Positions 24,404-39,241 of a stretch of 64,000 nucleotides of DNA are shown in pieces. The DNA is taken from the NCBI GenBank assembly GCA_016938735.1, contig JAFGUB010000015.1, positions 4,806-68,805 of the forward strand, read 5' to 3'. Source of the DNA: Campylobacterales bacterium. Lineage in GTDB: Bacteria > Campylobacterota > Campylobacteria > Campylobacterales > Sulfurimonadaceae. The notes under the pieces are model-generated. The model did no database searches. It was not told the origin of the DNA and worked only from the letters and a program-made list of their open reading frames with translations. Position numbers and translations under genes: made by a program. Every line of letters starts with the position of its first letter. Position 1 is the stretch's first letter.

Positions 24404-24758
24404 TTCGAACCTCCTGCTCGCCTCCGCCATCATTGCACTGCTGGTGATCGCCCTGCCGATTCTGTTTCACCTCACGCGCTACCTCGGCGCGCGTGAGGAC
24501 AACACCCGCAAAAACGAACCCTACGAGAGCGGCGTGCGCCTCACCCACCGCGACGCGTATGACAGCTTCAACATCCGTTTTTACACCGTAGGGATCATCT
24601 TTTTGCTTTTTGACGTGGAGGTGCTCTTTATGTTTCCGTGGGCGCTGAACCTGCGCGAGCTGGGGCTTTTTGCGATGATGGAGATGTTTGTCTTTATGGC
24701 TCTGCTCATTGCGGGGCTGATCTATGTCTATAAATCAAAGGTGCTCCAATGGACGTAA
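24399..24758 (+). CDS. nuoA: NADH-quinone oxidoreductase subunit A
   Basis: 119 aa from a GTG, with 3 TM helices and the NEPYESG block. Confidence 0.9.
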
Positions 24759-25279
24759 GTAACCATCTTTTAGGGGATGCCATCATCACCACACGCCTTG
24801 AGGCGGTGATCGACTGGGGACGTCAAAGCTCGCTTTGGCCGATGGTCTTTGACACGGCGTGCTGCGCCATCGAGTTTATGGCGGCGGCGGCGAGTCGCTA
24901 CGACGTTTCGCGTTTTGGGGCGGAGGTGCTGCGCTTCTCACCCCGCCAGGCCGATCTGCTGCTGGTTGCGGGCACCATCAGCTACAAGCAAGCCCCTATT
25001 TTGAAGATGATCTATGATCAGATGCCCCAGCCCAAATGGGTGATCGCTATGGGCGCGTGCGCTTCTAGCGGCGGCTTTTATGATAACTACACCACGCTTC
25101 AAGGCATTGACGAGATCGTCCCCGTGGATGTTTATATCGCAGGTTGTCCGCCGCGCCCCGAAGCGGTGCTCGATGCCATCGTGAAGATTCAGGAGAGTTT
25201 GTGGAAAGAGAGAGCGTGCGAAGAGCGCCACGCGGGGTTCAAGGGGCGGTTTGATGATGAGGCGCTAACTCAGCTCTAA
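24749..25279 (+). CDS. nuoB: NADH-quinone oxidoreductase subunit B
   Basis: 176 aa. Cluster N2 ligand blocks are [14 protein letters not shown] and GCPPRPE. It overlaps nuoA by 10 nt. Confidence 0.95.
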
Positions 25280-28200
25280 GGCGATCATCTCGGCCTGTTT
25301 GAGCACCGTTTCGGTCGCCAGTGCTTGCATGTCGGGCGGATAGCCGAACTGACGCAGCACCCTTTTGACGGCGATTTTGAGTTTTGCCCGTACGCTCTCT
25401 TTGATCGTCCAGTCGATGCTGGCATTTTCGCGCACCTTTTGGGTGAGCACCACGGCCAGCTCGCGCAGCACCTCTTTGCTCATCAGCTCTTTTGCACTCT
25501 CATTGTTTGCCACTGCCGTGTAAAAAGCGTACTCAAAATCCGTAAGGCCCAACTCACGCGGCTCTTGATCCATAGCCTGAATCTCTTTGCCGAGGTGGAT
25601 CAGCTCATCGATCACTTCCACCGCCGTGATGATTTTGTTGTGGTATCTTTTGATCGAATCTTCCAGCATCTGCATCAGCGATTTGCTTTGCACCAGATTG
25701 GTTTTTGATCTGGTTTTGATCTCGTCGCCCAGCAGTTTTTTGAGCACCTCAAGCGCGATATTTTTATGCTTCATATTTTTGACTTCCAGCAAAAACTCCT
25801 CTGAAAGTATCGAGATATCGGGCTTTTTGATCCCGCTTGCGTCAAAAATATCGATGACCTGCTCGGTGATGAGCGCTTTATCGATCACCTGACGAATCGT
25901 TGTCTCAATCTCTTCATCGCTTCGATCACCTGAGGGCTCAAACTTCACAAGACGCGCCTTGACGGCCTGAAAAAAGGCCACCTCGTCTTTGGCATCCATC
26001 GCCTGATCGTGCGGAATGGCGATGGCAAAGGCGCTTGAGAGCGCGTTTACCTCTTTGATGTACCTTTTTTTGCCCTCTTCGAGCCCTAAAATATGCTCTT
26101 CGGCTTCTAGTATCAGAGATAACTTTCCTCTTGTATCTTGCTCAAAGTAGTGCTCATACGCAAACCCGTGATACATCTGCGCAACGATTTCAAGTTTTTC
26201 CAGCATCAGCGCCACGGCCTTCTCCTGCGCCAGTGCGGGATCACCCCTGCCGCCGCTGTCGCTGTAAAACGAGAGCGCCGTTTTAAGATCGCTTGCAATG
26301 CCCAGATAGTCCACCACCAGCCCGCCCGGCTTGTCGCCATGCACCCGATTGACCCGCGCGATGGCCTGCATGAGGTTGTGCCCGCGCATGGGCTTGTCGA
26401 TGTAGAGCGTGTGCATTGAGGGCGCGTCAAAGCCCGTGAGCCACATATCGCGCACGATCACAAGGCGCAGCGGGTCATGATCGTCTTTCATGCGGCTCGC
26501 CAGGGCGCGTCTTTGCTCTTTGGTGGTGTGGTGTTTGGCCAGCGCCGCACCATCGGCACTGCTTGAGGTCATGATCACCTTGATGACCCCCTGACTCAAA
26601 TCATCGCTATGCCACGCAGGGCGCAGCGCGACAATCTCATCATACAGCGCAACGGCGATGCGGCGGCTCATGGAGACGATCATCCCCTTGCCCGCAAAGA
26701 CCTCCTGACGCAGTTCAAAGTGCGCGACGATATCGGCGGCGACCTCCTTGATGCGGTTGGCACTCCGATGAGGGCTTCTAGGCGCGTCCATTTCGCTTTA
26801 GCCTTCTGGCTCTCGTCTAGCTCCGATAGCTCCTCATCAAGCGCATGTACCAGCTCCTTGCCTTCCGCACTGAGGTTGATCTTTGCCAATCGGCTCTCGT
26901 AGTAGATCTTGACCGTTGCGCCGTCTTCGACCGCTTGGGCGATGTCGTAGATGTCCACATAATCCCCAAAGACCGCAGGCGTGTTGACGTCGCTGCTCTC
27001 AATCGGCGTGCCCGTAAACCCCAGATAGGTAGCATTGGGCAGGGCGTCGCGCAGATATTTGGCAAACCCGTAGGTGATCTCGCCCGTGTTTTTGTCTATT
27101 TTGGCGCGAAATCCGTACTGCGTGCGGTGGGCTTCATCGGCGATCACCACGATGTTGCGCCGATTTGAGAGCCGCTCATAGACGTTGCCCTCTTCAGGGG
27201 CGAACTTTTGAATGGTAGTGAAGATTACGCCGCCGCTTGCGACGCCCAGCTTCTCTTTGAGTTCGCTTCGCGTCTCGATCTGCACGGGTTCTTGTCTGAG
27301 CAGATTGGCGCAGCTTGCGAAGGTCTCAAAAAGCTGATCGTCGAGATCGTTTCTGTCGGTGATGACCAGCACGGTGGGGTTATCCAGCGCCAGAACGATT
27401 TTGCCCGTATAAAAGAGCATCGAAAGCGATTTGCCGCTCCCTTGCGTGTGCCATACGACCCCGCCTTTTTGATCTCCGCCTTCGCCGGCGGCTTTGAGCG
27501 TTCTCTCTACCGCTTTGTTGACGGCGTAGTATTGGTGATAGGCGGCGAGTTTTTTGACCGTCTCGATGGTGACGATGCCGTTTACATCCTCTTTTTTTGA
27601 TTGCTCAAAGACGATAAAACTACGCACCAGATCGAGCAGCACATGGGGCTGGAGCATCCCATTGATCAGGGTCTCTAGCTGCGGCGTCAGTCTGGAAACT
27701 TCGCTCACGCCGTCGCTGCTCTTCCACGCCATGTAGCGGCTAAGCCCCGCGCTGATTGTTCCCGCTTTGGCCTCGCAGCCGTCGCTGATGACACAAAAAG
27801 CGTTGTAGGTAAAGAGTGAGGGAATGAGCGATTTGTAGGTGCCGATCTGCTGGTGCGCGGAGGCGATGGTGGCGTTTTCGCCGGCGGCGTTTTTGAGCTC
27901 CATCACCACCAGCGGCAGACCGTTGACAAAAAGGATGATGTCGGGGCGTTTTTGATGGCCGTTTTCAATCATCGTGAATTGATTGACAACGACAAAATCA
28001 TTGCTATTCACATCGTCAAAATCTACCAGATGCACGATCTCGCCGCGCGTGATCCCCTCGCGCTGCACATCGACCTTGACCCCCTCCACCAAGAGCTTGT
28101 GAAAGGTCTCGTTGTCGCGCAGCAGTTCGCTTGATTTGATGCGCTCAAGTTGCTTGATGGCATCTTGCAGAGCGCTTACATGTAAGGAGGGGTTGATTTT

Positions 28201-28344
28201 TTCCAACGCGCCTAGCAGCCTCTCTTTGAGCAGAACCTCTTCATAGTTTCGCTCAAGATCGGGAGCGTACATGTAAGCGTAACCAAGCTGCTCAAAAAGC
28301 TCGATTGCGTAGAGTTCTATCTCATTTTCGGTGATTTTAGTCAT
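25265..28344 (-). pseudogene. hsdR: Type I restriction enzyme R subunit, split by a frameshift near 26760-26770
   Basis: The N-terminal ORF (26680..28359; likely start MTKITENEIE at 28344) has the DEAH box IADEAHRTQYG. The C-terminal ORF (25265..26791) has helicase motif [10 protein letters not shown]. The frames join as ...TRLEALIG / [13 protein letters not shown] with a 1-nt offset. Confidence 0.85.
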
Positions 28345-29288
28345 TTGTTCACTTCCCAATATCCGGATTTCAGGCTCCCGACTCTCTTGATAGCGCCTTC
28401 GTCTTTGAGCTTTTTGATCACTTTTTTGACCCCTGACTCGCTCATGGAGAGTTTCCCCATGAGCTCATTGATGGTAATGCGGCTGTTGTCTTTCATCAGT
28501 GCCAAAACTTTTTGATCACTTTTATAGTTACTTTTCTGGTCACTTTTGAGCGTATTGGCGATAGACTCCAAAATCATCTCAAGCATAAACTCGATAAACG
28601 GCGTGCTCTCTCCAAGAGCCGTGGACTCTTCTATGGCTTTATAGTACGCTTCTTGATGCTCCCTTACGATGCTTTCGGTCGGTAAAAGTGCAAAAATCGG
28701 ATTGAAGCTATGTAAAATCACACTTTGCCAAAGTCGCCCGATTCGACCGTTGCCGTCACCAAACGGATGAATAAACTCAAACTCATAGTGAAAGATGCAC
28801 GATTTCAAAAGCATATGCTCATCACTCGCTTTGAGCCATGCAAAAAGATCATCCATCAAATCATTTATCCTATTTGGCTGCGGGGCAATATGCGCTCCGA
28901 CGGATACATTGACGCTTCTAAACGTTCCTGCCGTCGTGAGTATCTCGCCCATCAAGATTTTATGTGCAAGCAACAGATCATTTAAGTCATCATACCTATA
29001 CGCTTCGAGTTTATCATAGGCTTTTATTGCGCCGTTGACTTCGGCAAGCTCTTTGAGTGTTCCTAAAACTCTTTTGCCATCCAAAATAGCGGTAATTTTT
29101 TCCTCACCCAGAAAATTACCCTCTATCTCCAAAGTACCCGCTAATGTTTTGATGCGGTTCTTTTTTCGTAGCATCGGGCTTACTTTTGTAGCGCCGCCAA
29201 CTTGAAGCTTGGTAAGTTCTTCACTGATTTGAGTAGAGAGTTTTAATATTTTTGAGGTTATTTTGTAGGGTGGGGTGTAGTTATTCAT
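28341..29288 (-). CDS. Fic family protein with C-terminal winged-helix domain
   Basis: 315 aa with Fic motif HPFGDGNGRIGR. The C-terminal block NSRITINELMGKLSMSESGVKKVIKKLKDEG is MarR-like. Its stop overlaps the hsdR ATG (ATGA). Confidence 0.85.
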   Translation of the reverse strand: MNNYTPPYKITSKILKLSTQISEELTKLQVGGATKVSPMLRKKNRIKTLAGTLEIEGNFLGEEKITAILDGKRVLGTLKELAEVNGAIKAYDKLEAYRYDDLNDLLLAHKILMGEILTTAGTFRSVNVSVGAHIAPQPNRINDLMDDLFAWLKASDEHMLLKSCIFHYEFEFIHPFGDGNGRIGRLWQSVILHSFNPIFALLPTESIVREHQEAYYKAIEESTALGESTPFIEFMLEMILESIANTLKSDQKSNYKSDQKVLALMKDNSRITINELMGKLSMSESGVKKVIKKLKDEGAIKRVGSLKSGYWEVNK

Positions 29289-30163
29289 TTTAGCCTCCCC
29301 AAAACGTCCAAAGCTCCCATCTCAAAGCGTGAAAACGCAAACCACTTTTTACCCAAGTCTTTCAAGCTTGCTCCGATATGGTAAATCTCTTGTTGGTCTA
29401 TGATCAAAAACCTATCATGAGCTTTTTTAAACTCTATGAGTTCTAGGTTTTGGTATTGCGCGCAGTACTTATGATAGTCAAGACGGAGCTGTTTTGAGAT
29501 GGTTTGCGTGTAGATTTTTATCTTTACATGTAAGTATTTGCTAAAGAGGGTAAAAACGGTGTCGTCTATGTAGTTGTCGATGAGCACCACTTCGTTTTTG
29601 GCACCCCCTAACAGCTCATTGACAAAAGCATACGCATCGTAAATCTGCCCGTCGTAGAAGATTCCATGTTTTGGTCGTATTGAGCTGTTTTCAAGGCCAT
29701 TTGAGATGTTTGCTACTTGTGATTTGAGTAGCGATACATCATTTTCTAGCTCTTTAAACCGTTCATGAGTGATTTTTTCGGAGTTGATGACATAGCCGTT
29801 TTGTACATAACTTGCGAGTACTGATGTTGCCCATTTTCTAAACTTTGTGGCGGTTATGGAATTAACTCTATAGCCGATAGAGATAATCATATCGAGGTTG
29901 TAATGCTCCAAGTTTCGCTCAACCATCCTATTACCTTCATTTTGAACTGTCAAGAAAAACTTGATAGTTGCGTCTTTGTCTAACTCATTGTCTTTGTATA
30001 TACGATTGACATGAAGGCTAATGTTTTGTTTTGTCACACCAAACAACTCGCCAAGTTGTTTTTGCGTCAGCCAAATAGTATTGTGGTTCACCGAAACATT
30101 CAGCTCTTGCTCACCGTCATTGTATATGACTACATTATGGCTTGGTATGGTTAGCTCATTCAT
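29285..30163 (-). CDS. RhuM-family protein
   Basis: 292 aa. LTQKQLGELFGVTKQNISLHVNRIY...ISIGYRVNSITATKFRKWAT is the RhuM signature region. It overlaps the Fic gene by 4 nt. Confidence 0.85.
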   Translation of the reverse strand: MNELTIPSHNVVIYNDGEQELNVSVNHNTIWLTQKQLGELFGVTKQNISLHVNRIYKDNELDKDATIKFFLTVQNEGNRMVERNLEHYNLDMIISIGYRVNSITATKFRKWATSVLASYVQNGYVINSEKITHERFKELENDVSLLKSQVANISNGLENSSIRPKHGIFYDGQIYDAYAFVNELLGGAKNEVVLIDNYIDDTVFTLFSKYLHVKIKIYTQTISKQLRLDYHKYCAQYQNLELIEFKKAHDRFLIIDQQEIYHIGASLKDLGKKWFAFSRFEMGALDVLGRLK

Positions 30164-30205
30164 CGCTTGCCTTTGGTTTGGTCATTTTAGGCTACCTTGC
30201 TTTGC

Positions 30206-30237
30206 TTACATGTAACGAAAGAAAAGCTTACATGTAA
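30206..30237. repeat. Two TTACATGTAA copies 22 bp apart (CTTACATGTAAC ... CTTACATGTAAT)
   Basis: Exact 10-mers at 30206-30215 and 30228-30237. They lie in the gap between rhuM and the AT-rich block. Confidence 0.95.
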
Positions 30238-30268
30238 TGCGGGGTTTGAATGATTGGTGGTGGTCATA

Positions 30269-30802
30269 TTATTTCCTGACTCCGTTTTCCTTGTCATCAA
30301 ATAAGCTTCTTTGATGTTCTTCTACCCATTTTTGATATTTTCGTTTTTTTCCAGCTTCTCGAAGTTTCAGTTTCCCGAGCTCTAGTTCTTGTGTTCCAAA
30401 TACTTGTAGCAGTCTATAACTTCTACTTTTCTCATCGCCAAATTCATCAAAAGTAATTTTTATTTCGAGATGGCAATTTATCAATGAACCATTAGAAAAT
30501 TTATGCTTTCCTTCAATAACCTCTTGTTTGAATTTTGAATCCGCCATACTAAAATCAATTTTTTCATTTTTGTATCTACCTCTCCAGTTATATTTCCCCT
30601 CTTTCAAAACTGGTGAAATTATTTCTATCATGGCATCGTCATCTTCTGACATAGTTGTGTCATCATGCAAAATAAAGCTTTTAAAATCTTTTCTCTCAAC
30701 TATATATTCATCTGCATCATCCTCTAAACTTCTATACCCTATCTTTTCTACTTTTTCATAAGCATCAATTTTTTTGTAAAAGTTTGAAATATATTTTTGC
30801 AC
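30269..30802 (-). CDS. Hypothetical protein (177 aa), very low GC
   Basis: Clean ORF in the AT-rich block downstream of the RloC-like gene. Lys/Glu-rich. No family recognised. Confidence 0.5.
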   Translation of the reverse strand: MQKYISNFYKKIDAYEKVEKIGYRSLEDDADEYIVERKDFKSFILHDDTTMSEDDDAMIEIISPVLKEGKYNWRGRYKNEKIDFSMADSKFKQEVIEGKHKFSNGSLINCHLEIKITFDEFGDEKSRSYRLLQVFGTQELELGKLKLREAGKKRKYQKWVEEHQRSLFDDKENGVRK

Positions 30803-30835
30803 GAGTTTATCATTGAGCTTTTTCTCTATTTGTTC

Positions 30836-31192
30836 TTATAGCTCTAAAGTTTTTTGTTGATTGTCTAACTCTAAATTTTGAAGTGTTGCTTCTTTGATTT
30901 TTTTATCTAAGGCTTCTGCTTGAGTATTTCTAGTAGCATAGTGAGTGATAATATCATTCAAAGCAGGTGATAAATAATGCAATGTAGGCAATACAATAGC
31001 CAATATTTCAATTAATCCGCCCTCTTGATAAGCTTCCGTTTCGATTTTTAACTCACTGTCTAAAAGCTCACCTATCCTTTTGACTGCTTCAAGAAAATCT
31101 TTTTCAGCCTTATTTCTCACAAAAGCATTCATAGCATGTGAGTTATCTTTTAGGTAATAATGAAGTTCAAATTTTTGAGTTAAGTTATTCAT
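30836..31192 (-). CDS. Hypothetical helical protein (118 aa), very low GC
   Basis: The start MNNLTQ at 31192 overlaps the RloC-like stop by 8 nt (ATGAATAA). The C-terminus is predicted helical/coiled. No family recognised. Confidence 0.5.
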   Translation of the reverse strand: MNNLTQKFELHYYLKDNSHAMNAFVRNKAEKDFLEAVKRIGELLDSELKIETEAYQEGGLIEILAIVLPTLHYLSPALNDIITHYATRNTQAEALDKKIKEATLQNLELDNQQKTLEL

Positions 31193-33380
31193 TAATAACT
31201 CCAATTTCAATATTCATCATTTTATTAAAATGTTTGATATTGCCTGATTCTTCAAAAATTTGTTTAAATGCTTCTTTAAATAAACTTACATCTATTTCTT
31301 TAACATCTGATATATTTATTTGGTCAGAATGAGACTCTCTATCAATGTATCTTAAAAAAGCACCGTATTTTATAGAATCAAGTTTATTTACTGATTCTTT
31401 CATCTTTTCATTGTCAATAAATCCAAAAAAATTCTCAAGTATATTTCGCATTGCATTTGCCAAAATATTGTCATGAGCGTTTCCATTTTCATGGTCTTTG
31501 AGTATTTTCCAATAAGCCTGATAATCATTTTGTATTTCATCTTGTAGCATTTCTAAAATTAAAGAAGATTTATCATTGCCTCTAACTATTCTAAAAAGCT
31601 TTTTATCCTTTTTATTGTGTATCTTACAAAGCTCATGAAAAAAATACATGCTATGAGTTAGTACAAAAACTTGTAAATAATTTTGACTTTCAAAAAATTC
31701 TTTTTTTGTAAGTTGTGCAACATTAAAAATATAATTATGCGATAAGCTTGATATTGGATCATCTATTACAACAATTTTATTTTTAATCTCTTCTGTTTCG
31801 CTTTCTTTTCCTTTGCAAAGTTCCACAAAGTAAAGAAAGCTTATTATCATTTTTTCACCTTCGCTTAACGATTTAAATTCTGGTTTACTTTCATTCTCCC
31901 TTACAATTCTGTAAAACTTATCTTCAAAAGGCTTTATCTCAAAACCATGCAACCCAAGCAAGGCTAATTGATAGTTAATTAATTCTATAACTTTTTCAAT
32001 ATTGATTGTTTTATCTTGATTTTCTTTGATAACATCTCTTTGAGCTTTTATATCATCTTTGATTTTTTGAAGTGCTAAATTTACCTTTGCTTCTTCTTTT
32101 TCTAAATCTTTTAAATCTTTTTCATATGACGAAATATGTACATCGTACTCCCATCTCATTATTTCCCAAAATTCTTTCTTTATAATCTCTTTAACATTTT
32201 TTTTATTTTTTATTTTTTCATTATGCTGCGTCATTTCTTGATTGATTTTTTCTACAAGTTCATTAAAGTTTTTCAATGCTTGACTAGAACCTTGAAGAGT
32301 CACTTTATTGCTTGGAAGTTTTATTTTATTGTCGATTGCAGTTATATTTTGAGATAAAACTGTAAGCAGTTTTGTATGTAAGCTTTCAAGTTCTATTTTT
32401 ACAGCATTTACATAATCATTTACTAAAAATGAGTCTATAGATGGAATATTATTTTTGATTGTCTCATATTTAGATTTTATTCCTTTCAATAAATTAATCT
32501 TATCCTCGTAAGTTTTATCAAAGTAGTTTTTTATCTCATCAGCTAAATTTTTTGTAACAGTTTCTTGTTGACAAAATGGGCAACTTGTGGCTTCATTTAT
32601 CTCATCTGGTAAATAGCCTAGACCCAGTTTTACCCAATCAGAATTTTGAAATTTTTCTATTAAACTTGCAACTGTACTATCTTTATTTCCTACAATAACT
32701 TCATCAAAAATACTGTTGTTTTCAAGTTCAATTACGCCACTTAAAACAATTTTTTGGAGAGGGTCTAAACTAATAGCATCATCACCTTCAATTTTTGAAA
32801 TCTCTTTTTTTAAATCATCTGTTGTTTTTGTAGGTTTAGTCAATGGCTTTACTAATGATTTAATATGATTAAATAGTGCATCTTTACTGCCTTTAACACC
32901 TTCTAAACAATAATCTAAAATTCTATCTCCACCGCTAAAGGTTGTTTTTATATTCCATATTTTTTCAGTCGCTTCTGACAATTTCTTTTTTTTCTTGCCA
33001 TTAGCTCCGTTTATTTCGTCTAGTTCTATTTTTTTTGCTTTTTCTTGAGTTTCTAATTTGTCAATTTCAGCTTTTGCATTTTTTACATTTTCTTCTGCTG
33101 TAACATTTGGCTCTGATATTGTAAAAACACCTTTTAAATCTTCTTTTTCATAAAAGTTTTCATTAATAAATTCTTGATTGTACACCAGTATTTTTGCTGT
33201 TTCTCCACCAGAAATTGAACAATCATTAAATTTACTATTGTTTTTATTTTTTAAAAAGTTTGATAAAGTTGTTTTTCCTGTTCCGTTTAGTCCATAAACA
33301 AGGTTTATTTTTTTATCTGTATTGAGTGTTCTTTCGCTTCTATAACTAGCGACATTTTTTAGTTTTATTAAAGTAATCAT
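31185..33380 (-). CDS. RloC/PrrC-like ABC-type ATPase (AAA_13 architecture), putative anticodon nuclease
   Basis: 731 aa with Walker A GLNGTGKTT and a long Lys/Glu-rich coiled-coil insert carrying CPFCQQ (zinc-hook-like CxxC). ABC signature SLSEGEK, Walker B IVVIDDPISSLS and H-loop VLTHS follow. The C-terminal R-x3-E (RNILENF) plus ESHSD resemble the PrrC nuclease triad. The gene is embedded in an hsd locus. Confidence 0.7.
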   Translation of the reverse strand: MITLIKLKNVASYRSERTLNTDKKINLVYGLNGTGKTTLSNFLKNKNNSKFNDCSISGGETAKILVYNQEFINENFYEKEDLKGVFTISEPNVTAEENVKNAKAEIDKLETQEKAKKIELDEINGANGKKKKKLSEATEKIWNIKTTFSGGDRILDYCLEGVKGSKDALFNHIKSLVKPLTKPTKTTDDLKKEISKIEGDDAISLDPLQKIVLSGVIELENNSIFDEVIVGNKDSTVASLIEKFQNSDWVKLGLGYLPDEINEATSCPFCQQETVTKNLADEIKNYFDKTYEDKINLLKGIKSKYETIKNNIPSIDSFLVNDYVNAVKIELESLHTKLLTVLSQNITAIDNKIKLPSNKVTLQGSSQALKNFNELVEKINQEMTQHNEKIKNKKNVKEIIKKEFWEIMRWEYDVHISSYEKDLKDLEKEEAKVNLALQKIKDDIKAQRDVIKENQDKTINIEKVIELINYQLALLGLHGFEIKPFEDKFYRIVRENESKPEFKSLSEGEKMIISFLYFVELCKGKESETEEIKNKIVVIDDPISSLSHNYIFNVAQLTKKEFFESQNYLQVFVLTHSMYFFHELCKIHNKKDKKLFRIVRGNDKSSLILEMLQDEIQNDYQAYWKILKDHENGNAHDNILANAMRNILENFFGFIDNEKMKESVNKLDSIKYGAFLRYIDRESHSDQINISDVKEIDVSLFKEAFKQIFEESGNIKHFNKMMNIEIGVINE

Positions 33381-34552
33381 ATCTCCACCCTTGCTTCCCC
33401 ACTCAACAGCTTTGGCAAGAGTGTATCTCGCAAGTTTTCAAGGGTTTGGATTTGTTTCGTATTGCTTTCTATTTTTGTGAAATATGGTTTCATCTCTTCT
33501 TCAAATTCCTTTACTGTTTTTTCATTCGGTAGAGTGATATTGTGTTCTTGGAATGTCTTTGTAGTAATAGTATCAAAAACACTGCCGTATGCAGCGGCTT
33601 GGAGCTCTTCCACTGAGTGTGAAATCAAAAGATATGTGAAAAAATAGCAGTCCTTAAATTTCGGCAAAACACCATAATTTGACTGGCTAAACGCCATAGG
33701 CTCCGCGAGTAAGCAATATTTCCCCACTGTTCCTCTAGCACTAATCACTGTGGCATATTTTGGTAAAAGCTTTGCCGAACTTTTTTCTAATCCCGTCTGT
33801 GTAATTGTTTTTTCTGTTTTGTGAATAAAACCTTTGTGATGCGAAGATATATCTCCTCCTGCCAACCATCCAATGCTCCCATCCCAATATTCCGCAACCG
33901 TAGTTTTTGGTGTACCCCCACCAACAAGAATAATGCTATCAAAAAGGCTTTGATCCTCCCACTCCTCTTTTGCTTCTTCGATAAACCATTGTCTAAAAAG
34001 CGTTTGGGCGAGGGATTCTAGGGTGTGGTTTTGGCGATGGAGAAGGTCTATCTTATCATCGAGGCTACTTAATACTTCTGCTATTGCTTTTTGTTCTTCA
34101 AGAGGTGGAAGGGAAATATCAATTTCATCAAATGTTGTTCTTGTTATGGTGTCAAATACTCCACCGTGAGATATTTGTATTAATTGATTTACTGTATCTT
34201 TTAAAAGGTAAAAAATATAATCATTTGTAGATTCATTTTCTTTTGCTCTAACTCCGTAACAAGATTGATTAAAAGTCATAGGTTTATCAAGCATTGCTAA
34301 AGCTCCAACAGTTCCACGAGCTGAAATGATTATGTCATTTTCTTGAAGTAGTTTTGTACTACTGTTTTTAAGTCCTTCTTCTGTTATAGTTTTTTCAGTT
34401 TTTGAAACATATTTTTTGCCAGTGTTAAAATCTACAACTGAAAGCCAAGGGATATCTCCATTCCAATATTCAGAAATAGCAGTTTTAGGAGTTCCACCTC
34501 CAATAATTTCTATTACCTCCCCCAACTTACACTCTCTCCAACTACTCATCAC
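33377..34552 (-). CDS. hsdS: Type I restriction-modification specificity subunit
   Basis: 391 aa. It has two target-recognition halves, each with GGGTPKT...ISARGTVG blocks, separated by conserved helical spacers. Confidence 0.85.
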   Translation of the reverse strand: MMSSWRECKLGEVIEIIGGGTPKTAISEYWNGDIPWLSVVDFNTGKKYVSKTEKTITEEGLKNSSTKLLQENDIIISARGTVGALAMLDKPMTFNQSCYGVRAKENESTNDYIFYLLKDTVNQLIQISHGGVFDTITRTTFDEIDISLPPLEEQKAIAEVLSSLDDKIDLLHRQNHTLESLAQTLFRQWFIEEAKEEWEDQSLFDSIILVGGGTPKTTVAEYWDGSIGWLAGGDISSHHKGFIHKTEKTITQTGLEKSSAKLLPKYATVISARGTVGKYCLLAEPMAFSQSNYGVLPKFKDCYFFTYLLISHSVEELQAAAYGSVFDTITTKTFQEHNITLPNEKTVKEFEEEMKPYFTKIESNTKQIQTLENLRDTLLPKLLSGEARVEI

Positions 34553-35234
34553 TCACCGCCTTTCTCACCCGCTCCATCAGCCCGAAGCTCTGCTCTTCTA
34601 GTAGTGAAAATGCAAACCACTTTTTGCCAAGGTCTTTGAGGGTTGATTCGTCGATATAGTTGTCTATAAGAACGATTGAACTTTTGGCTTTTTTGACAAG
34701 CTCACTCACGAGTGCATACGCATCAAAAATCTGCCCGTCGAAAAAGACGCCCTGTTTGGGGGTGGTGGATCTATTTTCAAGTGCATTTAGCACCGATTCT
34801 AGCTTTTGATTGGTCTGTTTTTGGTCTAGTTCAAGTTTTTCTACTCTTTGAAAAAGTGAAGCGTTCTGGAGGAGGTACTTGCGCATCTTGACGAAACTGT
34901 TGATGATATTGATGCTGGTTTGGATTGCCGTATCGCTTCGCAAGACTGCCGAGAGCATAGATACGCCTTGTTCGGTGAAGACATAAGGCAAAGCTGACGA
35001 ATGCTTGAGAGGTTGCAACCGGTCGCAATTTGCGACCAGTTCATTTTTTTCACTTTCATTTAACTGAAATCTAAACTCCTCGGGGAATCTCTCAATATTT
35101 CTTTTGACCTGTTCACCAAGTCTTTTTGGCTCCACACCGTACAGCTCCGCCAAATCTCTATCGATCATTACTTGCACACCGCGAATCGTAAAGATTTTGT
35201 GTTCGATGTTTTGCTGTATGCTCATTTCACTCAT
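34542..35234 (-). CDS. ORF6N (KilA-N-like) domain protein with truncated RhuM-type C-terminal module
   Basis: From MSEMSIQQNIEHKIFTIRGVQVMIDRDLAELYGVEPKRLGEQVKRN (ORF6N signature). The C-terminus matches the RhuM paralog tail but carries an internal deletion. Confidence 0.7.
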   Translation of the reverse strand: MSEMSIQQNIEHKIFTIRGVQVMIDRDLAELYGVEPKRLGEQVKRNIERFPEEFRFQLNESEKNELVANCDRLQPLKHSSALPYVFTEQGVSMLSAVLRSDTAIQTSINIINSFVKMRKYLLQNASLFQRVEKLELDQKQTNQKLESVLNALENRSTTPKQGVFFDGQIFDAYALVSELVKKAKSSIVLIDNYIDESTLKDLGKKWFAFSLLEEQSFGLMERVRKAVSDE

Positions 35235-36306
35235 CACCCACCCCCTCAAAATCATCTTCTAATTCCGCTTCTATTTGTTCCATGCTAGGAAGTGAGGATT
35301 GATACTCTTTGGGCAAGATCTCCATGAGTTCATATTCACTGACGCCTAAAGGCTTGTTGACATCTTTGAGCGCATACTCTACCACTACATTGTTTTTTGA
35401 TTTACAGATAAGTATGCCTATGGTCGGGTTGTCATTTTGATCTTTTAGCTCACCGTCGATTGCGCTCGTATAAAAGCTCAATTTTCCGGCAAACTCAAGC
35501 TTAAACTCACTCACTTTTAGCTCTACCACTACATAACATTTGAGCTTGATGTGATAAAAAAGCAAATCGATCCTAAACTCATCACCGCCAACGACAAGCT
35601 TATATTGTCTGCCGACAAAGGCAAATCCACTTCCAAGCTCTAGTAAAAACTTTGTAATGTTCTCTGTCAAAGCGTTTTCCAGCTCTCTCTCTTGATAGCC
35701 TTGCGTGAGGGTCAAGAAATCAAAGTTATAGGGATCTTTTGTGATCTCTTTTGCCAAGTCCGATTGAAGCGGTGGAAGTGTAGCCTCAAAGTTTGTGATA
35801 GCTTTGCCCTCTCTGGCGTAAAGATTTGTCTCTATTTGATGAATGAGCACATTTCTGCTGATACCGTTTTTGATGGTGTTTTGCACATAATAGAGAGCTT
35901 CTTGGGTGCTTTTGCACTTTTGGATGATGGCGATATTGTGCCCCCAAGGGATTTGTAAAACTTGCGAAACAACTTGTTTCGTATTTGTAACTTCCATTTG
36001 CGAAACAACTTGTTTCCAAAATAGATACCACTTTCTGATCAACTCTAAATTTCTTTTTGAAAACCCTTTTATATCTGGAAACTCTGCACTTAAGTCCTTG
36101 CTTAGTTGTTGCAAAAATCCGCTTCCCCAAGTGCTACTTTTTTGCTTTTCTACTATTTTACTTCCAAGATTCCAATAAAACTCCAGTAAAGCGCTATTTA
36201 TCTGTATGGAGGCTTTTATTTGCGAGCTTTGAAACCTTTGTTTTATCTCATTTAGCCACTCTTTATATTCTGTATTCAAAGAATTTTGAAGTTGTGTATT
36301 ACTCAT
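35227..36306 (-). CDS. YhcG/DUF1016-family PD-(D/E)XK nuclease-like protein
   Basis: From MSNTQLQ at 36306. The C-terminal block FRIDLLFYHIKLKCYVVVELKV has the D...ExK pattern. Confidence 0.75.
   Translation of the reverse strand: MSNTQLQNSLNTEYKEWLNEIKQRFQSSQIKASIQINSALLEFYWNLGSKIVEKQKSSTWGSGFLQQLSKDLSAEFPDIKGFSKRNLELIRKWYLFWKQVVSQMEVTNTKQVVSQVLQIPWGHNIAIIQKCKSTQEALYYVQNTIKNGISRNVLIHQIETNLYAREGKAITNFEATLPPLQSDLAKEITKDPYNFDFLTLTQGYQERELENALTENITKFLLELGSGFAFVGRQYKLVVGGDEFRIDLLFYHIKLKCYVVVELKVSEFKLEFAGKLSFYTSAIDGELKDQNDNPTIGILICKSKNNVVVEYALKDVNKPLGVSEYELMEILPKEYQSSLPSMEQIEAELEDDFEGVGDE
35962..36016. repeat. In-frame 36-bp tandem duplication carrying two GAAACAA-C-TTGTTTC hairpin-capable units
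   Basis: TTGCGAAACAACTTGTTTC occurs at 35962-35980 and again at 35998-36016. In the protein it encodes QVVSQ...QVVSQ. Confidence 0.8.
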
Positions 36307-37300
36307 CACCCACCGCCTCAAGGAGTCTTTGAAACTCTTCTTTGTTGGGCAGTACGGTGAGATATTTGCTGGCAAATATTTGGTTGTTGTCTCGTGGAAG
36401 GGTCATCTCTACAAGGGCTTTACTTTTGTCTTTGCACAAGATAATGCCCACCGTCGGGGCTTCGTCCTCTTGTTTTTCGACGCGGTCAAAGTAGTTGACA
36501 TACATCATCATCTGCCCGATGTCTTGATGTTTGAGTTCACCGATTTTGAGGTCTATGAGGACAAAACAATGCAAAAGGCGATTGTAAAATACCAAATCCA
36601 CCGCAAAGTGCTTTTCATCGATAGTAAGGCGTTTTTGTCTGGCGACAAAAGTAAAGCCTTTGCCAAGCTCCAGCAAAAATGCCTCTAGCTTATCGATGAG
36701 CTTTTGTTCTAAGTCGCTCTCAGAGTAGCTTGATAGCACGGGAAGTCCCACAAATTCGAGTATGTACGGGTCTTTTATGAGGTCTTGCACGGTTTCGATG
36801 ATATGCCCTTTTTGCGAAAGCTCTTTGACTTTTGTTTTGTCGATACTCAGGCTTAGCCGCTCATACAGCCCTGTGTCAAACTGCCTTTTGAGCTCTTTGA
36901 GCGTCCAGCCATTTTGTGCAGATTCTACCTCATAAAAATTTCGCTCATCTTCGCCGGTTATGCGAGACAAAAAGATGTAGTGGGAGTAGCTGAGGCTAAA
37001 TTGGTGAGACGCCGTCTCACTTTTTGAATAAGCCAAATAAAACCGTCTCATATTTTTGAGGTTATCTATTGAAAATCCACTGCCAAACTCCCTTGTAAGC
37101 TCATGTGAGAGATTTTTGATCAGCCCTTTGCCATACTCCGCCCTAGCTTCTCCGCCCTGCTCCTCTTCAACAATGCGCCGTCCTATCTCCCAGTAGGTTT
37201 GGGTCATGGTGGTATTGATGGTTTGGTAGATGCTGTTTCTGGCTTTTTGGAGAAGCTCTTTGATATCCGATACAAAATGGGTGTTTGAAAGATTACTCAT
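36299..37300 (-). CDS. YhcG/DUF1016-family PD-(D/E)XK nuclease-like protein
   Basis: 333 aa with N-terminal [30 protein letters not shown]...[14 protein letters not shown] and C-terminal [26 protein letters not shown]. Confidence 0.8.
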
Positions 37301-38813
37301 CCCCCACCGCCAAATTCACCTTCGCCAAATTTGCCAAAATACGCTCATTGAGCGCTTGTTCTTCCCTCATCTGCTCTTGAAGCGTTACATGTAAAGACTC
37401 AAACCGCTCTTTGAAATCAAACTCATCTTCCACATCTTCAAGCCCCACGTAGCGCCCGGGCGTGAGTACATAGTTAAGCTCTCGCACCTCTTGAAGGCTT
37501 GCGCTTTTGCAAAAGCCTTTGATGTCCTCATAGCGCACACTTTTGACCTTCCACTCATGATAGGTCTGCGCGATTTTGTCGGTATCTTTGGGGCTTAGCT
37601 CTTTAGTGCGGCGGTTGATGAGATGGCCCAGATTGCGCGCATCGATGAAGAGTATATCTTGCGTGGTGCGTCCGCGTTTCATAAACCAGAGCGAAGCGGG
37701 AATCTGGGTGTTGAGAAAGAGCTTTGCGGGCAGGTTCACGATGCAGTCAACAAGATTGGCCTCAATCAGCGCCTTGCGGATCTCCCCTTCGCCGCTGGTG
37801 TTGCTCGTGAGGCTCCCTTTTGCCAGAACAAACCCCGCCGTGCCTGTGGGTGCGAGGTGATACAAAAAGTGCTGTATCCACGCATAGTTGGCGTTGCCCG
37901 CAGGCGGTGCGCCGTATTGCCATCGGCCATCACTGCGCAGCAGCTCGCCGCTCCAGTCAGAGACGTTAAAGGGCGGATTGGCGATGATGAAGTCCGCTTT
38001 GAGGTCTTTGTGGGCATCGCTTAAAAATGAGCCTTCGTTGTTCCATTTAACCTGGCTAGAGTCGATGCCGCGAATGGCAAGGTTCATGCGGGCCAGCCGC
38101 CATGTGGTCTGGTTGGACTCTTGGCCGTAGATGGAGATGTCGTTGATGCGCCCTTGATGCTCCAGCACAAACTTTTCGCTCTGCACAAACATCCCGCCGC
38201 TGCCGCAACAGGGGTCAAACACGCGCCCCTTGTAAGGTTCTAGCATCTTCACCAGCAGTTCTACAACGCTTTTGGGCGTGTAAAACTGACCGCCCTGTTT
38301 GCCCTCGGCCAGCGCAAATTCACCCAGAAAATACTCAAACACATGCCCCAGCACATCAGCGCTGCGCGCTTTGGCATCACCCAGCGCGATATTGCCGATC
38401 AGATCGATCAGCCCGCCAAGCGCCTTGGCATCAAGATTGTCGCGGGCGTAGACCTTGGGCAGCACCCCTTTGAGCGTCGCGTTTTCACGCTCGATGGCGT
38501 CCATCGCTTCATCAACGAGCTTGCCGATGTGGGGGAGCTTGGCGCTGCCTTGCAGGGTGCTCCAGCGCGCGTTTTGCGGCACAAAAAAGACGTTTTCGGC
38601 GGCGTATTCGTCTTTGTCTTCGGGGTCGGCACCCTGATCAATCTGTGAGCGCAGCGTTACATGTAAAGCTTCAAAACTATCAGAGATGTATTTAAGAAAA
38701 ACCAGCCCCAGCACGACATGCTTGTATTCGGCGGCGTCGATGTTTTTGCGCAGCTTGTCGGCGGCTTTCCAAAGGGCGGTTTCAAGGGATTCTAGCGAAG
38801 CGGATTTGGCCAT
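37293..38813 (-). CDS. hsdM: Type I restriction-modification methyltransferase subunit
   Basis: From [22 protein letters not shown] (ATG at 38813). SAM motif DPCCGSGGM and catalytic NPPFN are present. The track ORF extension to 39017 crosses the promoter repeat and the nuoC start and is rejected. Confidence 0.9.
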
Positions 38814-38886
38814 AAGAGATGTTTCCGTGTGTGTTTTTGAAGCATAGATTGTAGCCAAAAGTTGATCCCCACACCTTGAAATCCAT

Positions 38887-38944
38887 TCGTCGCGGCTTTT
38901 GGGTATGATAGTGGCAATTTTTACCGACAAAGAGACGACGTGCC
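38887..38944 (+). promoter_or_regulatory. Copy B of the nuoA promoter/leader module, placed in front of nuoC
   Basis: TCGTCGCGGCTTTTGGGTATGATA has 1 mismatch to copy A, with TATGAT at 38904-38909. AAAGAGACGACGTGCC is exact. The GTG at 38940 opens an 11-codon remnant, [11 protein letters not shown], whose TGA overlaps the nuoC ATG (ATGA). Confidence 0.45.
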
Positions 38945-38971
38945 CCAAAATCTCCCGATACGGATTGATGG

Positions 38972-39208
38972 ATGAGTGAAGTACCCTACAGCGATCTTTT
39001 TGCCCACGCACAGTCACTCAAAAGCGAAGGCTACACCCTCCTACTCGACATCGTAGGCATCGATTACCTCTACCTGCCGCGCAAAGAAGCCAAGCGTTTT
39101 GGGGTGATCTACCATCTGCGCCATGGGGATTTCGACCGTGTGGTTTCTTTACATGTAAGCGTGAACGAAGATGAGCCGATAAGTAGCCTGTCCCCTTTAT
39201 TTAGATAA
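38972..39208 (+). pseudogene. nuoC: nuoC 5' fragment, terminated by a TAA created inside a tandem duplication
   Basis: The 78 codons encode a NuoC-like N-terminus (LLLDIVGIDYL...YHL). The stop at 39206-39208 lies in the duplicated copy of GATAAGTAGCC... Confidence 0.75.
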
Positions 39209-39241
39209 GTAGCCTGTCCCCTTTATTTGTCCCCTTTATTT
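39178..39241 (+). repeat. Nested tandem duplication (25 nt + A + 25 nt + 13 nt) inside nuoC
   Basis: GATAAGTAGCCTGTCCCCTTTATTT occurs at 39178-39202 and 39204-39228, followed by GTCCCCTTTATTT at 39229-39241. The net insertion is 39 nt, which is in frame. Confidence 0.9.

Follow-up and report, generated by a model that had tools for sequence, protein, structure and literature searches.

How can accessory genes enter a type I restriction-modification (R-M) operon without breaking the coupling between hsdM and hsdS? Type I R-M loci are known to harbour accessory and defence genes, and their entry without such a break is left unexplained in the literature searched. The question is raised by the hsd locus in a 64-kb stretch of Campylobacterales DNA (contig JAFGUB010000015.1; the whole stretch is referred to as the window), in which one short junction sequence recurs at four consecutive gene boundaries from hsdM to hsdS. 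This junction is likely to serve the hsdM/hsdS family as a translational-coupling module, which was copied with each insertion and is usable as a short homology arm. The operon acts as a small array of gene cassettes, probably with no dedicated recombinase. The repeated-junction finding is real and reaches beyond the window, and it is mechanistically modest and unsurprising.

A junction repeated at four gene boundaries

The genes of the coupled chain are listed here from hsdM to hsdS, with window coordinates and Pfam assignments.

37293-38813, minus strand: hsdM, type I methyltransferase of 506 amino acids (aa), first in the chain (N6_Mtase 4e-109, HsdM_N 1e-24); C-terminus ..KVNLAVGDE and stop
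36299-37300, minus strand: cassette 1, yhcG-1, YhcG/DUF1016 PDDEXK nuclease of 333 aa (YhcG_C 4e-58 at residues 172-327, and DUF1016_N); C-terminus ..LLEAVGDE and stop
35227-36306, minus strand: cassette 2, yhcG-2, YhcG/DUF1016 nuclease of 359 aa; C-terminus ..EDDFEGVGDE and stop
34542-35234, minus strand: cassette 3, ORF6N-domain protein of 230 aa with an internal deletion (ORF6N 3e-30); C-terminus ..RKAVSDE and stop
33377-34549, minus strand: hsdS, specificity subunit of 390 aa with two target recognition domains, end of the coupled chain (Methylase_S 5e-55, two stretches)

A pattern search of the 64-kb window with ACTCATCACCCACCGCC returned exactly four matches at three or fewer mismatches, all on the plus strand (34544-34560, one mismatch; 35229-35245, one; 36301-36317, none; 37295-37311, one). 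The number expected by chance is 0.15, and four matches were reached in 0 of 100 shuffles. All four copies lie exactly on the boundaries hsdM/yhcG-1, yhcG-1/yhcG-2, yhcG-2/ORF6N and ORF6N/hsdS, and the positions and sequences that a preliminary description of this locus had assigned to them proved exact, with at most one mismatch each. On the coding strand, the element reads GGCGGTGGGTGATGAGTRR, with the consensus GG(C/G)GGTG(G/A)G(T/G)GATGAGT(AA/GA/AG). It consists of a Shine-Dalgarno (SD)-like GGnGGTG, a spacer, and the ATG of the downstream gene placed inside the last codons and the stop of the upstream gene. The four junctions, with the energies of their predicted duplexes with the anti-SD, are as follows.

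37293-37311, minus strand: J1, GGCGGTGGGGGATGAGTAA, hsdM stop and yhcG-1 start, -9.6 kcal/mol
36299-36317, minus strand: J2, GGCGGTGGGTGATGAGTAA, yhcG-1 stop and yhcG-2 start, -11.8 kcal/mol
35227-35245, minus strand: J3, GGGGGTGGGTGATGAGTGA, yhcG-2 stop and ORF6N start, -15.4 kcal/mol
34542-34560, minus strand: J4, GGCGGTGAGTGATGAGTAG, ORF6N stop and hsdS start, -13.3 kcal/mol

Start and stop overlap by 8 nt at every boundary (ATGAGTAA, ATGAGTAA, ATGAGTGA and ATGAGTAG, respectively), where GAT GAG TAA, which closes the upstream gene with two sense codons and the stop, is read as ATG AGT AA by the downstream one. The upstream proteins end, in order, with AVGDE, AVGDE, GVGDE and AVSDE, and the downstream proteins begin with MSN, MSN, MSE and MSS (MMSS if GTG serves as the start). 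The tails, embedded starts and overlaps noted earlier are thus borne out by the open reading frame (ORF) calls. The GGCGG or GGGGG motif is located 6 nt 5' of the ATG and pairs, together with the following TG(G/A)GTGA, to the conserved anti-SD of the 16S rRNA (random 22-mers of the same locus gave a mean of -4.0 and a 5th percentile of -9.8 kcal/mol). Translational coupling classically has this layout, with an SD and a start codon embedded in the final codons and the stop of the gene before.

The shared element is 17-21 nt long, and J2 and J3 are identical at 20 of 21 nt. Other coupled boundaries of the same operon, hsdS/AAA_13 and RhuM/Fic, have different sequences with 4-nt ATGA overlaps, so the repeat is not just the generic junction of this organism. 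The GC content is ~55% in hsdM, 36-45% in the cassettes, 34-40% in hsdS and 26-28% in the AAA_13 gene, which indicates that the common junction sits in DNA of different origins. A scan of the locus found no promoter-like or terminator-like sites at the junctions and all genes co-oriented on the minus strand, and an Rfam scan of the locus matched no family at the junctions.

Relatives with and without cassettes

The closest HsdM homologs, from Campylobacterota metagenomes, are 80-86% identical and mostly end with ..V[IV][IV]D[EG], and a subclade among them ends with ..AVGDE, AVSDE or AASDE. An exact-sequence look-up of the window HsdM returned no record. In loci L081, L166/167, L168 and L169, the same junction joins hsdM directly to hsdS (for example GGCGGTGGGTGATGAGTGAgtggagag and GGCGGCGAGCGATGAGTAGttggagagagtgtaagttggggg). 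The junction is therefore present in homologous loci, and the proposal of the preliminary description that it represents the original hsdM/hsdS boundary is upheld. Beyond the junction in the downstream direction, the L168 sequence is identical to the ORF6N/hsdS boundary of the window, which makes J4 together with hsdS the ancestral boundary. J4 and the 5' end of hsdS also match the second of two junction copies in L082. These two copies are 79 bp apart, and the spacer between them, which reads ..SGTKVPLPKEQVSEKAVGDE and stop and matches the tail of P0252, a YhcG2-type protein, is best read as a decayed cassette.

Loci L163, L164 and L165 carry a YhcG1-type cassette with a VGDE junction between hsdM and hsdS. 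The hsdM of L163 and L164 is of another type (tail ..AKIGFSV and stop, ATGA overlap), and their cassette retains GGGG(T/G)T(T/A)GG(G/T)GATGAGTAA ahead of a different hsdS; in all three loci, the YhcG cassette brings its junction to an hsdM with a differing tail. According to nucleotide alignment, homology among the YhcG1-type cassettes starts at the ATG and stops right after GATGAGTAA. The cassette number among related hsd loci varies, as had been anticipated, from none (L081, L166-169) over a remnant (L082) and one (L163-165) to three in the window. The orthologous hsdM junctions of the relatives diverge more among themselves than do the four paralogous copies of the window. YhcG-1 itself is 100% identical to P0121, a protein from a metagenome-assembled genome annotated as Campylobacterales bacterium.

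A shrunken hsdM was observed in L170 (276-827), where a 183-aa in-frame remnant has its N-terminus fused to the C-terminal ..NENLAKVLIDG and stop. It keeps the 8-nt overlap onto yhcG, which is followed by hsdS and by a protein of 1258 aa for which no Pfam family is recorded.

Shared C-terminal tails are add-ons

A longer C-terminal domain common to these proteins was considered and rejected. The YhcG_C match in YhcG-1 stops at residue 327 of 333, before the tail; sister lineages of both YhcG clades lack the tail; and YhcG-1 and YhcG-2 are just 29% identical (BLASTP). Among 120 YhcG1-type homologs, the core ends with ..KLLE and is followed by variable tails, which are [AEG]VGDE in the 16 closest homologs and SEDE, EEE, EDYE and similar in others. 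A YhcG1-type copy beside McrBC in Aliarcobacter (L174/175), outside any hsd locus, ends with LLEEE and has no overlap. The YhcG2-type core ends with ..SSLPSIEEIEA.L; of 120 homologs, 40 stop at DELEE (..IEAKLDELEE) and ~40 have an extension of 10-12 residues ending with [KE][AV]VGDE or VDDE. The VGDE-type tail is clade-specific inside each YhcG family, and by these comparisons the tails of the YhcG proteins are evidently add-ons. Across the HsdM family, too, tails vary widely (VIIDE, VKI, VGDE).

In L176-L183 (6001-8302), a YhcG2-type gene with the tail KVVDDE and a KAP NTPase gene are coupled via the junction-like GGTGGTGGATGATGAGTAA. Both are located in a cluster for cobalamin biosynthesis that contains no hsd genes, and the pair seems to have left the R-M context.

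Copies of the hsdM tail in distant hsd loci

Protein-seeded scans of genome and metagenome contigs yielded, among the matches listed, mostly distant hsdM loci (63-78% identical) rather than the close clade, a sample useful for generality and poor for strain-level variation. HsdM is a conserved anchor gene, with 63-86% identity at the protein level across many phyla. When the last 19 nt of hsdM were searched against the own locus in 146 loci (L001-L162), copies with 0-3 mismatches occurred exclusively downstream and on the same strand (L024, L033 with two copies, L034, L044 with two copies, L046, L073, L082 and L099). An hsdS was identifiable in 112 loci, 66 of which contain an insert of at least 150 nt after hsdM. 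When the last 80 nt of hsdM were compared with the insert in an ungapped-match scan, 10 of these 66 loci scored 13 or more, compared to 1 of 66 for either of the two controls, and the strong matches (score 20-41) end exactly at the hsdS start.

The duplicates measure 20 nt in L033, 27 nt in L046, 46 nt in L034, 49 nt in L024 and ~80 nt in L073, and the duplicated piece differs between clades in sequence (e.g. TGGCGAAGGTGAAGATATGA) as well as in length. Outside the AVGDE-type clade, the proteobacterial loci L024, L034 and L073 and L165 from the Campylobacterota hold unambiguous hsdM-tail duplicates of 35-80 nt. Fragments of the 3' end of the anchor gene are thus retained downstream in direct orientation and at variable length, as in arrays built on anchor homology. 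Such variable copies of the local hsdM tail point to homology-driven duplication or exchange combined with selection for coupling, rather than to a sequence-specific site. In L044 (11480-11906), a 160-bp stretch from the 3' end of hsdM into the 5' start of hsdS forms a tandem repeat (2.6 copies, 91% matches), which suggests that the junction region itself is prone to duplication.

The inserts in loci with hsdM-tail duplicates are ORF6N, RhuM and YhcG genes and a HepT/MNT pair, and in other loci the insert that most often follows hsdM is an ORF6N/RhuM gene. A 20-codon mini-ORF in L034 and in L165 begins at the GATGAGT(G/A)A junction of the cassette, continues into the local hsdM-tail copy and stops on the hsdS start (MSEQVRLNKAIAESLAKVKV and MSKQTVVVIKMNLAGLGYEI, each followed by the stop). 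Judged from its layout, this relay would be hard to explain except via selection for uninterrupted coupling. The start of hsdS usually overlaps the stop before it, namely in 42 of 46 direct loci and in 43 of 66 insert-bearing loci.

The ..LA[KR]VKI tails of ORF6N cassettes were also considered as having been wholly copied from hsdM. This was rejected, as the native C-terminus of the family (..EMxxxxxLxRxK) is already similar; among these tails, only that of L033 (20 of 21 nt) is a clear hsdM copy.

Copying, convergence and other explanations

Each gene might have evolved the same optimal SD and overlapping start and stop on its own, with no copying and no role of the junction in recombination. 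Several observations are in line with such pure convergence. Unrelated cassettes in many phyla end with ..GGxDE and stop, encoded by GGAGGnnnnGATGAGTGA. ATGAGT is the native start of HsdS (MSEW..) and of many YhcG proteins (MSN..). The exact 17-mer GG(C/G)GGTG(A/G)GTGATGAGT is found once in each of 59 viral contigs (L184-L242), followed by an in-frame stop in 40 of them. No hsd, YhcG or ORF6N homologs were detected near the 17-mer in these contigs, and the viral 17-mer is, judging by its gene context, a convergent strong-SD and start/stop-overlap junction of unrelated phage genes. Carriage of the cassettes by phages was likewise considered and finds no evidence in these single matches.

The pentapeptide is moreover partly forced, because D-E-stop follows from ATGAGTRA and G/V-G from the SD. 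The earlier argument that a tail shared by unrelated proteins is not expected from divergence therefore needs to be qualified: copying is favoured, but G-x-D-E is in part dictated by an SD combined with an ATGAGT start. The four copies, however, also agree at positions that are free to vary, namely the non-canonical C in GGCGG and the 5-nt spacer TGGGT, where unrelated loci differ, and J2 and J3 are nearly identical throughout. Convergence is further at odds with the greater divergence of orthologous hsdM junctions, the different sequences at other coupled junctions of the same operon, the clade-specific tail in each YhcG family and the unambiguous duplicates in L024, L034, L073 and L165. Pure convergence consequently appears improbable. 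From the agreement at free positions, the clade-specific tails, the more divergent orthologous junctions and the long duplicates elsewhere, we conclude that the junction was apparently copied and then held by selection on translation initiation.

The preliminary description had regarded each accessory gene as inserted together with a copy of the junction, in the manner of an attC site. The first part of this reading, gene-plus-junction cassettes at the hsdM/hsdS boundary, is well supported by the relatives; the integron-like mechanism is not. If the 17-mer were an attC- or attI-like site, a recombinase encoded elsewhere would excise and insert gene-plus-site cassettes at this boundary. One conserved core per cassette boundary would agree with this, as would the promoterless, co-oriented cassettes, whose number differs among relatives as in integron arrays, and the discrete cassette unit from ATG to junction that is present in different hsd loci. 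A Phage_integrase-family gene is even located 1 kb upstream of hsdM in L166/167, but these loci hold no cassette. No recombinase, including IntI, was found among the ORFs of the window's hsd locus and ~10 kb on both sides, each of which could be assigned to something else (nuo, lipopolysaccharide genes, Sir2, GGDEF and others). The 17-21-nt element is not palindromic and lacks the imperfect inverted repeat of 57-141 bp that folds attC into a hairpin. No inverted repeat was found at the four junctions, and folding of their flanks revealed no shared hairpin or common fold. Other clades duplicate different 20-80-nt sequences from the local hsdM tail, which a sequence-specific enzyme would not do, and the matches on viral contigs are all single copies with no hsd homologs nearby. 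Taken together, a site-specific integron-like system is quite improbable here.

A role of the shared C-terminal peptide (or of a longer HsdM C-terminal helix elsewhere) as a docking or degradation tag, which would recruit the accessory proteins to the M2S1 methyltransferase or co-regulate their stability, is the least credible explanation and very improbable: the pentapeptide is common to four proteins, and the C-terminal helical region of HsdM lies alongside the HsdS helical region in a structural model (PMC3510504), but conservation is at the nucleotide level, includes synonymous positions and continues into the stop codon and the downstream start, the long hsdM-tail copies in L024, L034, L073 and L165 stand apart from the cassette protein as remnants or mini-ORFs, tail-less YhcG homologs are functional in other settings, and the tails of HsdM proteins vary.

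A possible route of cassette insertion

With the junction regarded as a copied translational-coupling module, we infer from the sequences both that translation in the window is actually coupled and by which route the cassettes recombine. Three promoterless accessory genes would sit within the hsdM/hsdS boundary, each ending in its own junction copy, so that ribosomes finishing one gene could reinitiate on the next and hsdS would keep its native initiation region. The shared ..VGDE tail would be a by-product of encoding the coupling module.

In a first step, an insertion between hsdM and hsdS would survive if the hsdM 3' end is duplicated before hsdS. The resulting order of hsdM tail, insert, tail copy and hsdS could arise from Campbell-type integration of a circle carrying a 3' piece of hsdM, or alternatively from double recombination using a long hsdM arm and a short tail arm. 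The reading frame of the insert would then fuse to the duplicated tail. Thirdly, general recombination could carry the gene-plus-junction unit to further hsd loci and stack it there, the conserved hsdM providing the long arm and the junction the short one; alternatively, a circle of junction plus gene might integrate Campbell-style. Finally, cassettes would decay by deletion.

Several points weigh against this reading. A clear hsdM-tail duplicate is present in only 10-15% of the insert-bearing loci, which implies that many insertions manage without it. The recurrence of the viral 17-mer as a start/stop junction in unrelated genes suggests that the identity in the window is possibly in part convergent. 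The hsdM genes of the relatives are only ~65-83% identical at the nucleotide level and no recombination breakpoint was resolved: sliding-window nucleotide identity between hsdM and six relatives ranges from 55 to 85% with no clear breakpoint in sequences this divergent, and GC3 of hsdM falls only modestly towards the 3' end. No near-identical cassette in two loci, and no near-identical donor, was found among the relatives recovered. Furthermore, we infer duplication as an outcome of homology-facilitated illegitimate recombination, of which it is not a documented typical outcome.

A more far-reaching version of the coupling-module reading is doubtful. The type I R-M operons to which this widespread HsdM family belongs might be recombinase-independent gene-capture platforms, in which the hsdM 3' tail and the hsdS initiation region form a portable recombination site and gene-plus-junction cassettes circulate between hsd loci, excise as circles, re-integrate, stack next to hsdM and are expressed by ribosome relay. 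If true, such a platform would functionally be an integron without an integrase.

Comparison with known systems

Translational coupling of hsdM and hsdS has been proposed for EcoKI (PMC3510504). There, as in this family, the two genes are co-transcribed and overlap by a few bases in different frames; the cassette-free relatives found here have an 8-nt overlap and an SD in the hsdM tail. In contrast, EcoKI has a 1-nt overlap and no inserts (PMC3510504), whereas the junction in the window is reiterated four times with three foreign genes in relay.

Integron cassettes (attI/attC and IntI) likewise are promoterless, co-oriented single-gene units with a conserved element after each, arrayed beside a fixed platform in numbers that vary between relatives. 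The window differs in lacking both an integrase and a hairpin-forming attC, and the site is not fixed across clades. In addition, the element here is a translation-initiation region within coding sequence, for which a ribosome relay is predicted rather than expression from a Pc promoter alone.

The accessory ('rlo'-type) genes of type I R-M loci (DUF1016, RhuM, Fic, PrrC/RloC-like AAA_13) belong to the same families as those of the window. The rlo genes of Campylobacter jejuni reportedly go back to Miller and colleagues in 2005. For such loci, the literature searched reports which genes are present, in contrast to a recurring junction or a copied hsdM tail. Published loci have DUF1016 and RhuM genes located between core genes of the hsd system (PMC9881135). 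Neither reiterated junctions nor copies of the hsdM tail at the borders of cassettes were found described in the literature searched, the coverage of which is incomplete, and the regularity of the repeated junction appears to be undescribed.

Mechanistic parallels are the orphan toxin-immunity modules of Rhs and contact-dependent inhibition (CDI) systems and the effector-immunity arrays of the Vibrio cholerae type VI secretion system (T6SS), in which modules pile up downstream of a conserved upstream homology anchor and 3' fragments of the anchor, reusable as homology, are kept before the displaced modules (PMC5361080). These arrays have been attributed to homology-facilitated illegitimate recombination or C-terminal displacement (PMC5361080). 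The fragment in the hsd loci differs from theirs in being the very end of hsdM plus the initiation region of the next gene, and in place of silent orphans there are complete accessory genes that stay in translational register.

These findings amount to a simple structural rule: the operon tolerates an insert if the hsdM tail and the hsdS initiation region are duplicated, and the insert thereby inherits an expression and recombination module. The rule predicts where new R-M-associated defence genes lie, namely in ORFs flanked by local hsdM-tail copies, and it accounts for odd C-terminal peptides common to unrelated proteins. It also offers a testable route of cassette exchange in naturally transformable Campylobacterota. 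For annotators, it makes 20-codon relay mini-ORFs and hsdM-tail remnants meaningful features.

Other features of the hsd locus and the window

The remainder of the hsd locus (25265-33380, minus strand) has boundaries without the junction, whose sequences differ from it. According to Pfam, it comprises the following genes, and two small ORFs also lie in this part.

31185-33380, minus strand: AAA_13 ATPase
29285-30163, minus strand: RhuM-like gene
28341-29288, minus strand: Fic gene
26680-28359 and 25265-26791, minus strand: hsdR, split into two overlapping ORFs (HSDR_N, SWI2_SNF2, T1RH-like_C)

With hsdM, hsdS and hsdR all in one locus, the system is a type I R-M system. The 13.7-kb locus (minus strand, window 24749-39000) interrupts the nuo operon between nuoB (24749-25279) and nuoC (from 38973), and the hsdR stop overlaps the end of nuoB by 15 nt.

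The interval between hsdS and hsdR is a second variable slot with defence genes inside, and its boundaries lack the hsdM-type junction. It contains a KAP NTPase, HamA with a helicase, and AAA_21 in L081; SMODS and SLATT in L166; KwaA in L168; HNH, KAP, QatB and TatD in L169; and AAA_13, two small ORFs, RhuM and Fic in the window (28341-33380).

The ORF6N cassette (34542-35234) lacks ~45-60 residues between ..NYIDES and LKDLGKKWFAFS relative to the RhuM-like paralog at 29285-30163 and is probably a decaying gene. Within yhcG-2 (35962-36016), a perfect 19-nt direct repeat, TTGCGAAACAACTTGTTTC, at a spacing of 36 nt doubles the peptide KQVVSQ.

Outside the hsd locus, nuoC is broken by a tandem duplication at 39178-39241 (plus strand), consisting of GATAAGTAGCCTGTCCCCTTTATTT twice plus GTCCCCTTTATTT. 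The 38 extra nt cause a frameshift and a stop, and the NuoC-NuoD frame resumes at 39227. This could reflect a pseudogene, population heterogeneity or an assembly artefact.

The 10-bp palindrome TTACATGTAA has 32 sites in the 64 kb compared to 0.04 expected, accounting for 32 of the 48 ACATGT sites (e.g. 2890, 15019, 28176, 30206, 30228, 37385, 38657, 39149, 43983 and 63656). Its consensus extends to GC-TTACATGTAA-GC with otherwise unrelated flanks. The palindrome lies within coding sequence; two copies are in hsdM, where they encode LHVT and homologs have other residues. It resembles a highly iterated palindrome or a motif of the uptake-sequence kind.

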